A stretch of 64,000 nucleotides of DNA from Octopus vulgaris (taxonomy: Eukaryota). The stretch is taken from contig OX597822.1 of assembly GCA_951406725.2 (NCBI GenBank), positions 21,204,001 to 21,268,000 on the forward strand, read 5' to 3'. How positions within the stretch are numbered: position 1 is the first letter of the stretch; each line of letters starts with the position of its first letter. Both the position numbers and the translations under genes were made by a program. Below the pieces are notes generated by a model, which worked only from the letters and a program-made list of their open reading frames with translations, searched no databases and had not been told where the DNA came from. Positions 4,177 to 62,717 of this stretch are shown one piece after another.

Positions 4177-4252
4177 ATATATATGTAGGTCCCGGATTGA
4201 GTCGGGGTTAACCACAGTAAATAAGGTACTCAATACATAGCAGAGTAAATTA

Positions 4253-4378
4253 ATTTATTTTATAGAAGGAGTTTCTACAGGACTAGAGCTGTTTCATTCA
4301 AAAGAAATCATCAGGAAGCTTCCTGATGATTTCTTTTGAATGAAACAGTTCTAGTCCTGTAGAAGCTCCTTCTATAGA

Positions 4379-4384
<6 letters not shown>
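4253..4384. repeat. Spacerless 132-bp palindrome centred on AAGCTT (4316-4321)
   Basis: 66-bp arms with about 3 mismatches. Confidence 0.95.
4317..4367 (+). ncRNA. Type I hammerhead ribozyme (mirror copy on - strand at ~4270-4320)
   Basis: agcttc-CTGATGA-t ttc tttt gaa t-GAAA-cag..ctg-TA-gaagct; 6-bp stem I, GUA site (cut after 4361); U-U instead of G-C at 10.1/11.1. Confidence 0.75.
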
Positions 4385-4509: not shown

Positions 4510-4565
4510 CATATATATACATATATATACATATACTTCGTTCGTTTTCCGTCCTCGTGTTGTAT

Positions 4566-4712
4566 ACATTCGAAGCTTTCTTCCAGGGGATCTAATGCGC
4601 ATGGCTTAGATTTCCCTTGGCGGGCTGCCCATATCGGAGCAATCTCAAGATTAATCAGCCGAAATTGCTAAGATGATCTGGTTCTTGACTGATGACTGAG
4701 GGCTTCGAATGT
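4566..4712 (+). ncRNA. Rearranged (non-circularly permuted) hammerhead ribozyme, copy 1
   Basis: P1 4566-4580/4698-4712; P2 4583-4620; II ggctg 4623-27/cagcc 4656-60; III agcaa 4638-42/ttgct 4665-69; AUC cut after 4644; I tcaaga 4645-50/tcttga 4683-88; GAAA 4661-64; CTGATGA 4689-95. Confidence 0.7.
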
Positions 4713-4790
4713 CCCGTCCTGTGGTTCTTGTGTCGTCTCTGTGGTGTTTCATGTTCTTGTCCATGTCTGTAATTATTTTTACCGTTTACC

Positions 4791-8452
<3,662 letters not shown>

Positions 8453-13363: not shown

Positions 13364-14137
13364 ATGTTTTACAACTGTTGAAATGGGGATCAGTAATTAT
13401 GTTCTCATTCAGTGTAACAAGTATTGTTATCAAAACAGCTGAAAGGGTGAGTGGCTAATAGCTTATTTAGGTCTTTTATCCTTAGGTCACAAGTATTTTG
13501 AGGTTATCTGAAAGCATGAGATTGGACAGCTACCAGCCAACAGATGTCTGATGATCTCATAAAACTGGAGAAAAAATATAAGAACATTATTTGTGTGTAA
13601 GAATCACTAGATACTTAGCTACACTTTATGTAGCCTAATATGAGTGTGTATATTTATGTTTGTGTATACAATACATACACAGTAACACACACAAGTTTGG
13701 ATTACATAACTACAAATGTATGTATACTCATCGAATCAATGAAAGAACCTCTCCATGTTTGTTCAAACAGTTAGAAATAGCAGTCAGTCTTTTAGAAAAG
13801 GCATGTTGGTCTTGGGTTCCTTTCTCATAGGTAAAAGTTGGGATGGTCATGCATGAAGTGCCATTTATCATGGGCCTGTCTTACCAGGGCTGGTTTGAGA
13901 GAAACAATATCACACACACCCAATTTTACATTCACTTTCCTTGCTGGCTTGGATGTTTCAACAAAGTCTTACAGATCAAAAGCCCACATCTTGCTTAGTG
14001 TCCAACATGTGCTTTGGCAGGGTTCTAATAAATGATGCCCTTAATGCCAACCATTCTACAGAGTGTAGTGAATGTTTTTCATGGTACAAACACTAGAGAT
14101 GAATGTTCCCTATACATACTCTGAGAGAGGAATAGTT

Positions 14138-15698
14138 TGTGCTTGTTTCTTGTATGTCTATCTCTAATTCCGAAATTTGTTGTATTCGGAATTCACTTAG
14201 ATATTCCTTTGCCTGTTTTGTTACTGAGTATGATGCTTTCTTGTTTTCATGTTTTGAGACAAGTTTTAACATCCAGTCCTCAGACTTTTTCAGGTAGGTG
14301 TCTAGGCCAATTGTAACAATCTTCATTGTTATTGCTAGTTGCAAAAGACCACGGCCTCCCTCTTTTCTTGGCAGATAAAGTCGTTCTGTATCTGCCTTAG
14401 GGTGGTGCATTCTATGCATTGTTAACAGTTTTCTTATTTTTCTGTTGAGCTGACATATTTCAGTAACTGACCAGTTAACGATATTGAAACTGTAAGTCAC
14501 GACTGGTATGGCTAATGCATTGATCGCTTCGATCCTGTTTCTTGCATTCAGCTCTGTCTTGAGTATTGCTCTCACTCTTCGATAGCATTCTCTTCTGATT
14601 CTTTCCTTCATCTCTGAATGCCTTATTCCATTCTCTTCAATTACCCCTAGGTACTTGTAGCTCTCCGCTGGGTCTAGTTCTTTTATGACATTCTGCTGGT
14701 CAAGGTTAACGTTAGATGTTTCTGTCATTTTTCCTTTGATAAAGGTAGCTTTTGCACATTTATCGAGGCCGAATTGCATTCTGATGTCGTCACTGAATTG
14801 TTTGACTATCGCTAGTAAGCCCTTGAGTTTTTGGTCATTTTTTGCAAAAAGCTTTAAATCATCCATGTAAATGAGATGATTTATATTTTTATCAAACATT
14901 TTATACCCGTACTGCGCGTCATTGAGCAGTTTTGAGAGAGGTATTAAGGCTAAACAAAAGAGGAGTGGTGACAGTGAGTCACCCTGGAAAATGCCACACG
15001 AAATTTTTACATCACCAGCATTTAGGGATTCATTGTCACTGTTCAGAGTTAGTGTGGTTCTCCATGATCTCATACTTACAGTCAAAAAGTTTCGCAGAGT
15101 AGGTGCTATCTTATACATTTCCAGGCATTTCCTAATCCAGCTATGTGGTAGGCTATCAAAAGCCTTTTTATAGTCTATCCAGGCTATTGATAAGTTTTTG
15201 TGTCATTTGTGACAATCTTCTAAGATCATCTTATTGATGAGTAGTTGATCTTTACAGCCATAGGATCCACGTTTACATCCCTTCTGTTCATTAGGGAATA
15301 TGCTGCTGTCTGTTAAAAAACTATAAGTATATTCCGTCAGGACAGATGTTAGCGTTTTGTACATAGTTGTTAAGTAGGTTATGGGTCTATAGTTTTTTGG
15401 TTCATTTGTTTCTTCACTTTTTGGAAGCAGGAATGTTAACCAATTAACTAGCCAAGGAGGCATCCTACTAGGGTGTTGCAAAACATCATTGTACAGTTCT
15501 GTTAGCAGTTCATGGCTCTCTGGGAAGGCATTCAGCCAGAAGTTAGGAATTTTATCCTTTCCTGGAGACTTCCATTTGCTTGACCTCCTGAGAGCAGATC
15601 TTATATCTTCTACCTTGACACCCTCCCACTTTTGCTCTTCTAAAGGGTCCAGTTCTGTAGATATTCTGTCAATCCAGGGGGCCTTTTTGTTGTGTGTT
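14138..15698 (-). pseudogene. R4/Dong-type non-LTR retrotransposon reverse transcriptase fragment
   Basis: KSPGKDKIPNFW, NYRPIT, GIFQGDSLSPLLF, HLIYMDDLKLF, FGLDKCA, RLYLPRKEGGRGL; stop near 15203; truncated at both ends. Confidence 0.9.
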
Positions 15699-15711
15699 TT
15701 TTCTTCTTCTT

Positions 15712-15771
<60 letters not shown>

Positions 15772-28101: not shown

Positions 28102-29002
28102 ACAATTTAATAAATAAAATATATGCATACATACATACATATATGCATGTAACTACATCTATATGTATATATACATGGATATGACTGAGCGCCTCGCGTC
28201 ATTTCGTTTCTTATCCTCCAAGTAAGTTTTTATATATAATTATGACGCGCACTCTCTAACCCTTTACTTGACCTTTCCTTCCTTCCTGTCTGTCTTCCTC
28301 TCTACCTGTCTCTCTCCTTATTTTTCACCCTTTCTGGTTTCCTTTCCTCTCTATCTCTCTCTCTCCCACTCCCTCCTCTCTCTCACTGCTGAGTGGACTA
28401 CTAACTTTCTTTTGCTCATAGCTTTCAACAAGTCAACATTGACTTTTTCTGTCTCTGGCAAGTCGATTCTGAATTGCGCTCCAACGAATTTTTCCACCGT
28501 CTAGGCTTAAAAAAGCCCTCAATGTTGGTTTCATTGTCCTGTTTTTATTCTTTATGTGTACTGTATTTTCATTCGTATTGCTTTTACGTCCTGTTCTTGT
28601 CACTTTTTTTTCCTTGTTTTACCCCTCTGCAAAGGAATTTTATTTAATTCATTTTGCAGGAAGGATTGCTTTGGCCGGATCATGTTCTGCCCTTACCTTC
28701 GAAACACGCATTGAGTCGAACCAGGGGCAGCTGATGAAGGGGAATATTCCTTGTATTGTTTGTCTTGTACTCTGTTTTTTCGTTGTTAAAAAAAGTCCGT
28801 TTCCTTGTTAGTTTTTATGTTTTCGTTTCTCATTGTGTTCTACATTTATTAGTGGTGTCCTGTAATTATATATATATATGCATGTATATATACATATAGA
28901 TGTAGGTACGTACATATATGTATGTATGCATATATCTTATTTATTAAATTGTTATTATATGACTGAGCGCCTCGTGTCATTTCGTTTCTTATCCTCCAAG
29001 TA

Positions 29003-59472: not shown

Positions 59473-59833
59473 ACACACACACGAGCACACACACAATGAT
59501 TATTTTAAAACATGTTTGTTGTTTATTATATCAATGGAGAACAATGGAATGGTAGAAACATAAACAAAGTGGACTAAATATATGAAAAATAATTACATTT
59601 CTCCAGCTACATTCTTGATTGAAGATTGATTTTTACGTTTACCCTTTGGTATGATGACTTTTGAAAGACATAAATAACAATTCTGACTGATGCTGTATTA
59701 ACAGCAATTTACAATCAACTGTCAAATTGTAAAACACTGCCATCACAAGACTTATATGTACATGTGTAGGAATTACAACCGTGTTTCATGGTCTGCTACC
59801 ACAACAGCTCCTTTATAGGATCCAGTTAGCTCT

Positions 59834-59920
59834 AGACATCATCAGGAGGAACCACGTCCGGTTTCGGCCCCTACACCTCTACCGTTTTGACGTGGCGGGT
59901 GCCCCCTTTTGGAGGTGTCT
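59834..59920 (-). ncRNA. Rearranged hammerhead ribozyme, copy 3, in a GC-rich element (~59765-60310)
   Basis: On -: agaca(P1) cc tcc aaaa ggg(P2) ggcaccc(II) g ccacgtc aaaa cgg(III') TA gagg(I) tgta ggggcc(II') GAAA ccg gacgtgg(III) tt cctc(I') CTGATGA tgtct(P1'); GUA cut between 59880 and 59879. Confidence 0.7.
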
Positions 59921-62717
59921 TCAGCTCTGGTGCTGGGTGCATGTCTTCTTTCTTCTGTTCCCTGGCCTCTTCGATGTATCATCAGTGAGTGTCAGTCGGT
60001 GACTGACTGACTTGTCAAATTTTTCCCGTTAAATACCCGCTGCTAGGCTCCAGCAGGCAGCCCCAGCAAGTTGTCACATGACACTGTCTCACCTTAACTG
60101 ACTAGTGAAGGCGTGTAGTTTTAGCCCATGCTTTTTCTAAATGACCGTCACCTGTCAGCCAGCGAAGCTGATTCAGTCAGCTTGTCTCACCTAATAATGT
60201 TATTTCCCGTTGGCATGTTTATGACTTTCAAGCCATTTTCGGTCTTCCCGCTTCAGCTATATATAGAAGTTGGCTTTTTCAACCGCCTCCTGTACTCTCC
60301 TTATTAGTTTATGCAGCTCAGGGCTAGAAAAAACAAATCTTATGTGTGTGTGTGTGCTTGGTGCAGGTATGTGGCTTAGTGACTACAGTTTGGAGCTCAT
60401 GTTCATTAGATTTTGGGTTCAATTCTCAGCTTAGGAAGCACATTGTATCCTTGAACATGGCACATTTTCATGTTGTCTAAGTCCTCTCAAGTGAAAATTA
60501 GTACCAGTGGGTACTTGTAAGCAACTCTGTGACAAACTAGTATCCCATTCAGAGGATGGTCCTGTATACTCTGTTGCCTAAAGGTCTTTGAATTCTGGAT
60601 AGGATTAGCCCACTTGAGCCTTTATGCTTGAAGCAAAGTTTAACAAACAGTCTGTGTGTGCATGTGTGTGTGTGCGTGTGTGTATGTGTGTGTGTGAACT
60701 GTTTGAACTTATTTCACTGAACCAGTAAGCTCTTCTATCATTTTACATATTCATACTTTATGTAGTTGTTAAATATGTGTATGTCTATGAGCAATTTGTT
60801 AACTGTATGTTTGTATATGAAATGTACACATATTTGGAATATATATAGGTGTGTGTGTGTGTAGTGAAAAAGTTTGTGTGTGAATTTAATACTCATACAT
60901 TTAGCTCCACTGTTTGCATAGATTATATGATTAAATCTTGGGGTTCTTTCTGCAGATGAACAACTTGACTAGTTTTCTCTGGCTGCAATAATTCTTTAGC
61001 TTGATCTTCTGGGAAGGCATTGTCATTAAACCATAGTGTTTATTTGCACAACAAAGCTGATTGTTTGAGTGTGTGTGTGTGTGGGGGGGGTAAAATGAAC
61101 ATGAAATCAAATGAACAAATATATAATGAAATTTTGATACAGAATTTTATTATTTGCAATCTTGTATATATATTAGAACAAACATAATATCCTATGGTCA
61201 GTGGTTCGATTTTTTTTTTTTTATGACAAAAAATATTAGTGTTATGCTAAATATCTTGAATGTAGTTTCTCCCCATCAAAGTTAACTTTGGCTTTCAGTC
61301 ATACTATGACAAGAACCAGTCTTGTATTGGATCATTTCAATTTGTGATACCTTGTTACATAGGTTTGTGACCTTCAGTCAGAATTAGATCTTGCTTGGAC
61401 TTTGTAGCAAATGTAATTCCTCTCGTGTTGCATATTGGAAATTGAGAAATTTGCAAATTGCAATTGCTGAAATTTTATCCTGTGCCTTTATTTGTAGTAA
61501 TGGTTTGTGTATTCTATCAAATGACTGCAAAGTAGTAGTTAGGTTTTTTTAAATTGGCAGTAATCTCTGTAGGCTACTCTGAATCCTTTTGAGATTGGTT
61601 TCTTATCCTTAATGTTTTAGAAAACTTCAGCGGGGTGAAAGTCATCATTCTTGGCTATTTCTTAAGCTGTTTTATAGGCAATGATTGTAGAAATGTCACT
61701 TGCATTTAATATGGCTAATTAGTAGAGCCTGAAATGAGATTACAAAATTATGGTTAAATCAGAAGGGTTCCTCTATAATTATTACACAACAAGAAAACAT
61801 ATTTGATCCAGTATTATAAGAAACATTAACATGTATTGGAAACAAAAAGATGCTTATTCTCTGCTAATATTTTGAGTACTGTATTTTCTGGCATTCAAAC
61901 TGACATAGCTTATAGTGTAAATACTCAAATATCATCACTATCTTTTCAAATTCTGCTGTATTTCACTTGGAATTTTTGGTCCTCCAAAGTCATCATGATG
62001 TGTAAGTCAACATACCTGTTTTAACTGTAAATTTTAGTCTGAAAACTTTGACTCAGAAATATGGTATATGTCTTGTACCACTTTTATAGCCACCATCATA
62101 TATAAGGAAGTATATGTGTGAACACATATTGCGTTCTATTGTTTGTGTAACTGATTAAGTTTCACATACATATTATACAAGATAACACTGGAAAACTGAC
62201 TCCACCTACTTGAACAATTTTGGACTCACCAAACAGAACTTACAAGGAAATATTCAAACTACCAAATCAATGTAAAAAGTGGCAACAAACAGTGGCATAT
62301 AATTTTTTAATGATTGAATATGTTAGATAATCAGAATGGTAGCTGACACTTGGAATATTCTACAACATTTTAGATACACTTTATTGATTTTAAGAGGCTT
62401 CTGGTGATTATTAATATTTTCAAAAGAAAATTTTCATAAACATTTGCTCTATTGAATATATTTTAAACATTCCTAATTAATTTCTTATTTTAATTTAGAT
62501 AATTTAATACAGTTAAATAAATATATAAAGCGTGCAATACTGTTTGTTTCAAAAATTTTTCCCCTAAAGATTTCCTAGTAATTTTTAATAATTTTACTGA
62601 TTAAATTTGGATATAAAATTGTTCATTTAAATCTGCCTCTAGTTCTTGTTCGATCAGGAAATATTTTGCAACTATTGCAGCAGATTATGCTGCAAAATAC
62701 TGTCTCTTTCTCTTTTG

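Follow-up and report, generated by a model that had tools for sequence, protein, structure and literature searches.

A Candidate Hammerhead Ribozyme with a Displaced Stem II in Probable Noncoding Penelope-Like Retroelements of Octopus vulgaris

The locus and the noncoding repeat that carries the motif

The window analyzed here, a 64,000-nucleotide stretch of the 2.8-Gb genome of Octopus vulgaris (contig OX597822.1, positions 21,204,001 to 21,268,000), is AT-rich animal DNA that is dense in (TA)n runs. On its forward strand, positions 4566–4712 hold the parts of a hammerhead core, namely an AUC cut site at 4642–4644 (C17 = 4644), GAAA at 4661–4664 and CUGAUGA at 4689–4695, so that the catalytic sequence elements of the class (CUGAnGA, GAAA, an NUH site and the A15.1–U16.1 pair) are all present. 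These blocks stand in the order cut site, GAAA, CUGAnGA (S-G-C), which can be obtained by no circular permutation and hence is not the order of type I, II or III hammerheads. The features of the locus are as follows:

4186–4384, forward strand: unrelated palindromic element, 199 bp long, that contains a minimal type I hammerhead at 4317–4367 (a neighbor only)
4534–4792, forward strand: copy of a repeat termed family A, 5′-truncated (monomer positions 516–772 of a 772-nt noncoding repeat), in (TA)n
4566–4580, forward strand: P1 5′ strand (pair probability 0.96)
4583–4620, forward strand: P2 hairpin (pair probability 0.81)
4623–4627, forward strand: 5′ strand of stem II, with G10.1 at 4623; shifted to a place upstream of the cut-site block, it covaries across families
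4629–4644, forward strand: 5′ strand of the stem III extension, GA strand of a predicted kink-turn, and stem III (partly by eye); U16.1 = 4643, C17 = 4644, predicted cut after 4644
4645–4650, forward strand: stem I 5′ strand; 4645 is where the predicted 3′ product would begin and where the 5′ ends of truncated copies accumulate
4656–4664, forward strand: stem II 3′ strand (C11.1 = 4660) and GAAA
4664–4681, forward strand: stem III 3′ strand; a bulge of 3 nt plus GA, predicted to form a kink-turn; and distal stem III (by eye)
4683–4695, forward strand: stem I 3′ strand and CUGAUGA core
4698–4712, forward strand: P1 3′ strand, starting two bases past A9 (pair probability 0.96)

Read 5′ to 3′, the first half of the motif consists of P1a, hairpin P2, the stem II 5′ strand, stem III, the cut site and stem I, and the second half of the stem II 3′ strand, GAAA, stem III, stem I, CUGAUGA and P1b. 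A sequence-only reading of this DNA had proposed a rearranged hammerhead with an AUC site and an enclosing P1 of 15 bp, and these parts are indeed present where it placed them: P1 (4566–4580/4698–4712) has 15 bp, two of them G-U, and encloses the motif; stem I (4645–4650/4683–4688) has 6 bp; and stem III (4639–4643/4664–4668) has 5 bp including A15.1–U16.1, or 6 bp counting U4669–A4638, in addition to a distal helix. Its description of stems I, II and III as perfectly paired holds for I and III, and for stem II only by way of the upstream strand, as GGCUG 4623–4627 with CAGCC 4656–4660; the canonical position directly after CUGAUGA offers 0, 0 and 1 bp with 0, 1 and 2 extra bases. When the upstream flank of the window copy was shuffled with dinucleotides preserved, the combined score of P1, P2 and stem II was equaled in 0 of 200 shuffles, and the fold of the motif has z = −2.4. 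The nested-fold pair probabilities are high for P1 and P2 (listed above) and are 0.09, 0.24 and 0.19 for stems I, II and III, the method being one that cannot score pseudoknots. An Rfam scan of the window returned only microRNA-like chance matches and no hammerhead match at the motif.

The window copy corresponds to the 3′ third of the family A monomer. A 236-nt query yielded 2,382 first-look candidates across the genome, the best 40 of which match at 99–100%, and one family A 25-mer has 787 exact genome matches (control, 0). Among 86 arrays taken from the first 100 matches (three second matches of one array were dropped), the 3′ boundary lies in (TA)n in 79 and the 3′ end is common to within 3 nt in 82, 5′ ends vary, and 14 are tandem arrays of 2–3 units; each tandem unit carries one split hammerhead, and the type I hammerhead is absent from family A units. 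Of 65 copies that span the motif among the arrays examined, 40 are identical to the window copy in helices and core, and most of the others represent an older subfamily that differs by a single change in the bulge of stem III. The family has no open reading frame (ORF) beyond 68 aa (an ATG frame of that length, on the other strand, is the monomer's longest), and the ORF of a Naiad Penelope-like element (PLE), with GIY-YIG at its N terminus and reverse transcriptase (RT) at its C terminus, is not present in the monomer. Family A is thus a young repeat with the anatomy of a nonautonomous PLE. A second, weaker cluster of 5′ ends occurs around a small GC hairpin at monomer positions 385–430 (locus L005). 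Elsewhere in the window, broken LINE reverse transcriptase frames lie at 14093–15739 (reverse strand), and a further long foldback element flanked by TA runs lies at 5347–5955.

Placement of stem II across families

The upstream 5′ strand of stem II was found by comparing families. Because this partner strand lies at 4623–4627, P1 and P2 sit between A9 and G10.1. Helix sequences differ in families A2 (L048), B (L032), C (L066) and E (L059) while the pairing holds; all four have an upstream stem II of 5–6 bp and junction gaps of 0/0/0, and family A is looser, with 2 nt on each of the three strands (2/2/2). In 200 shuffles of the upstream flank, the score was reached 0 times for A, A2 and E, once for B and twice for C, such that five of nine representatives pass, having stems I, II and III around the core and covariation among them; the four that fail (G2, 11; G, 32; F, 118; D, 200 of 200) are single worn copies, and all nine representatives were picked by hand. 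A stem II directly after CUGAUGA is rejected on the 0–1 bp available there together with the P1 probability of 0.96.

The catalytic bases are all kept in every family examined. In loci that were chosen for these families, the core was matched 81 times, versus 0 in each of five shuffled runs (5/5). Additionally, 400 kb of random stretches were scanned with a loose list, which gave four family copies among six matches, and with a strict descriptor, which gave one split match, 0 in three shuffled runs and 1 in a reversed control. A bulge followed by tandem G-A pairs in stem III can be discerned by eye in A, A2 and G (3-nt bulge) and in C (4-nt bulge); this kink-turn-like pattern is partial in B, D and F and absent from E.

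Two of these families have further copies in the window. Family B (28190–28865, forward strand; motif at about 28625–28743) is noncoding, inserted in (TA)n and represented by 2,063 first-look candidates, and has the same split fold with a different sequence. In family E (59800–59960, reverse strand; also L056), an R2-like LINE of the restriction-endonuclease type bears the fold in its 3′ UTR; the family is not TA-targeted and has 1,410 candidates, and downstream of its motif, a second GAAA and a hairpin resemble, by eye, a decayed half of a type I hammerhead.

Copy ends and competing explanations

The 5′ ends of family A copies bear on whether the motif is cut. Copies beginning at the base after the predicted cut were counted genome-wide with a pattern in which the 24-mer beginning at 4645 comes no more than 2 nt after (TA)4. 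On the reverse strand 54 such starts were found (107 on the forward strand, partly double-counted), compared with 8 and 6 reverse-strand starts for control positions 11 nt upstream, where microhomology is better, and 20 nt downstream. Among the first 100 matches listed there are 75 distinct cut+1 sites, 69 without and 6 with C17, and in 26 of the 69 the first U cannot be derived from the TA register. The truncation hazard likewise peaks in the 20 nt past the cut (14 ends; 19 bins over 72 single-unit arrays); the 20-nt bin and the pattern controls were fixed beforehand, and the interval 623–646 was chosen after the data had been seen. Among these 72 arrays, three copies begin exactly at cut+1 and two keep C17. 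A second cluster of 5′ ends lies 6–9 nt beyond the site at a TA-like patch, and the majority of copies read through the site.

A template RNA with its 5′ end at U4645 is the best account of the pile-up, which would constitute an indirect genomic footprint of cleavage; the cut after 4644 that had been predicted for the rearranged hammerhead gains support from this distribution of ends. Since many truncated copies begin exactly at the predicted cut, the motif likely cuts itself, and since most copies cross the site, uncut or religated RNA would be the main template, with a religated circular RNA as a possible form of it.

The sequence-only reading had also pointed to a type I hammerhead about 200 nt upstream across a (TA)n spacer, which does exist as a sequence (stem I 4317–4322/4362–4367, cut after A4361; partly by eye) and is of the minimal type I kind described from PLEs (Cervera and de la Pena 2014, PMC4209133). 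Its further suggestion was that the two architectures may serve one element, possibly with release of an RNA between 4361 and 4644 (283 nt). Both motifs are on the forward strand and about 200 nt apart, which speaks for that idea; however, each belongs to a separate high-copy family, and we regard a single element as extremely improbable and the released RNA as not supported. The 199-bp element is of fixed length (1,088 first-look candidates), carries one minimal type I hammerhead per strand, and occurs always in (TA)n in copies that are 97–98% alike, its hammerhead being buried in a near-perfect 132-nt palindrome (−117.7 kcal/mol for the whole element). Co-occurrence of the two segments is not borne out in other genomic copies, as the element lies within 1.5 kb of only 1 of 24 other family A sites (about 1.1 kb away, on the opposite strand) and family A is nearby in 0 of 13 other copies of the element. 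Insertion of both elements into (TA)n accounts for the neighborhood. Separately, the window has three copies of a family of canonical minimal type I PLE hammerheads (15913 and 41832, forward strand; 40816, reverse strand; by eye).

Two other explanations concern the motif itself. It could be a plain type-SGC hammerhead whose stem II is formed by bases after CUGAUGA, with P1 and P2 as mere flanking structure, which would fit the published block rule (PMC10085705). Family A can indeed pair CUGA 4696–4699 with UCAG 4655–4658, or GGCU 4701–4704 with AGCC 4657–4660, and families B and F allow four mostly G-U pairs at the canonical place, but A2, C and E have neither alternative pairing (0–2 bp at the canonical place), these pairings require either a bulge of 2 nt ahead of GAAA or an insert of 5 nt past A9, and P1 holds the bases concerned with a probability of 0.96, the CUGA/UCAG pairing having a probability of 0.0; we consider this explanation very unlikely. 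Also unlikely is that the motif is a hammerhead-derived protein-recognition or RT stop signal with little or no cutting activity, at least in family A. The loose junction of family A, the copies that cross the site, the often slow cleavage of PLE hammerheads (PMC4209133) and the dispensability of hammerhead cleavage for insertion of one canonical PLE in vitro (PMC11167929) are all in keeping with such a signal, whereas the retention of the catalytic bases in every family examined and the pile-up of 5′ ends at the exact base after C17 argue against it; moreover, the partner strands of stems I–III would already have been copied at the cut, so a block by structure is not expected there.

Relation to Naiad elements and to known hammerheads

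Naiad PLEs have been described as targeting (TA)n and lacking canonical hammerheads, and some, including Naiad_Ovul, as holding only core halves 35–50 nt apart (Craig et al. 2021, PMC8557442). The Naiad 3′ end in this genome agrees by eye with the published Octopus consensi, and the split fold closes, by eye, nine consensus ends in File S5 of that study (two Octopus, three Acropora, two Morbakka, one Clytia and one crustacean, the last four ends being named from the order in the file); File S5 was read around CUGAnGA matches, and the nine are not a census of its 54 consensi. Six nematode Naiad ends (File S5, parts 13–16) appear by eye as unsplit CSG, in which a long helix clasps stems I and II; only two natural CSG sequences are published in the parts of the literature consulted. 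In the File S5 portions examined, the Omin Naiad end lacks the split fold by eye, several ends gave no definite reading and no bivalve Naiad end was found. Two ends in the spider part and some crustacean ends have other variants (by eye).

The Octopus Naiad motif has 244 pattern matches in the genome (control, 0). A decayed Naiad RT end lies upstream of the motif at L158, an RT remnant being found on the related family G only, and no intact Naiad ORF adjoins the motif in the 19 of 20 stretches scored, among which only L158 has an RT remnant (L142 was dropped from ORF scoring, the motif being absent from the expected place); Pfam gave nothing in the two frames tested. Family A and the Octopus Naiad 3′ end have the fold in common with no clear sequence likeness. 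Like Naiads as described in PMC8557442, family A has (TA)n targets, partial tandems (pseudo-LTRs) and 5′ truncation, as well as a 3′-end RNA fold (in nine Naiad consensi, by eye); unlike them it has no ORF, and the annotations seen in that paper are only "HHR_core" and "HHR_half_core". Family A is likely a nonautonomous Naiad-type PLE; given the want of a clear sequence match, and given that the fold of family E is borne by an R2-like LINE, we infer this partner.

The closest known relatives of the motif are the type-SGC and type-CSG hammerheads (Eckert et al. 2023, PMC10085705), which have in common with it a noncircular strand order, a full catalytic core and a short linker that connects stem I with stem II. 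There, known hammerheads carry at most 1–2 inserted bases at A9/G10.1 and block C is treated as unbreakable, whereas here P1 and P2 split it at that step. In type SGC, stem II has a strand no more than 2 nt from A9, where family A has 0–1 bp; by that definition the motif falls outside type SGC and is a variant of the hammerhead class. Type SGC also has a helix that links stems I and II at their distal sides; here P1 closes the molecule but joins other strands. The SGC examples published there are almost all metatranscriptomic and none is from the genome of a known organism, in contrast to a motif that resides in animal retroelements.

Family A also resembles the non-LTR retrozymes (Li et al. 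2026, 10.64898/2026.07.22.740005), which are noncoding tandem monomers with one hammerhead per unit, derive from PLEs and span 51–972 nt, a range that includes 772 nt; since they are defined and searched for by type I hammerheads, the split wiring would be missed. The minimal type I PLE hammerheads lie in pseudo-LTRs and tolerate a single base left unpaired at stem II's 5′ end, the same step that is opened in our motif (PMC4209133). They are circularly permuted, with a weak stem III and dependence on dimers, whereas the motif has a long stem III and would be expected to fold as a monomer. The literature searched contains no split or permuted hammerhead in PLEs; PMC4509812, cited for additional helices, may bear on this.

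We propose that P1 and P2 stack on each other, with the nick between them turned toward the A9/G10.1 step, where a four-way junction would rebuild the core, while the predicted kink-turn in stem III would fold the chain back and allow the 1-nt linker at 4682 to reach stem I. Cleaved RNA would then give 146-nt copies starting at the site, uncut or religated (possibly circular) RNA would give the longer and tandem copies, and a Naiad protein would mobilize family A in trans. It is highly probable that the window motif is an S-G-C hammerhead core whose CUGAUGA strand is separated from stem II and reconnected by way of P1 and P2, and that it self-cleaves after C4644. We also think it probable, as one joint reading, that Naiads, their noncoding passengers and an R2-like LINE family carry an active hammerhead in a previously undescribed four-block order, in which a four-way junction and a kink-turn close the catalytic strand where it is opened, at A9/G10.1; that the unsplit CSG of nematode Naiads lets one clade show the origin of noncircular permutations; and that cleavage, with religation to circles, shapes the inserted copies.

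If true, this would explain the reported absence of hammerheads in Naiads and would place noncircularly permuted ribozymes, formerly found almost only in metatranscriptomes, in animal genomes in many copies. It would also break the assumption that the CUGAnGA–stem II block tolerates no interruption, and the genomic footprint of cleavage would bear on the role of PLE hammerheads.
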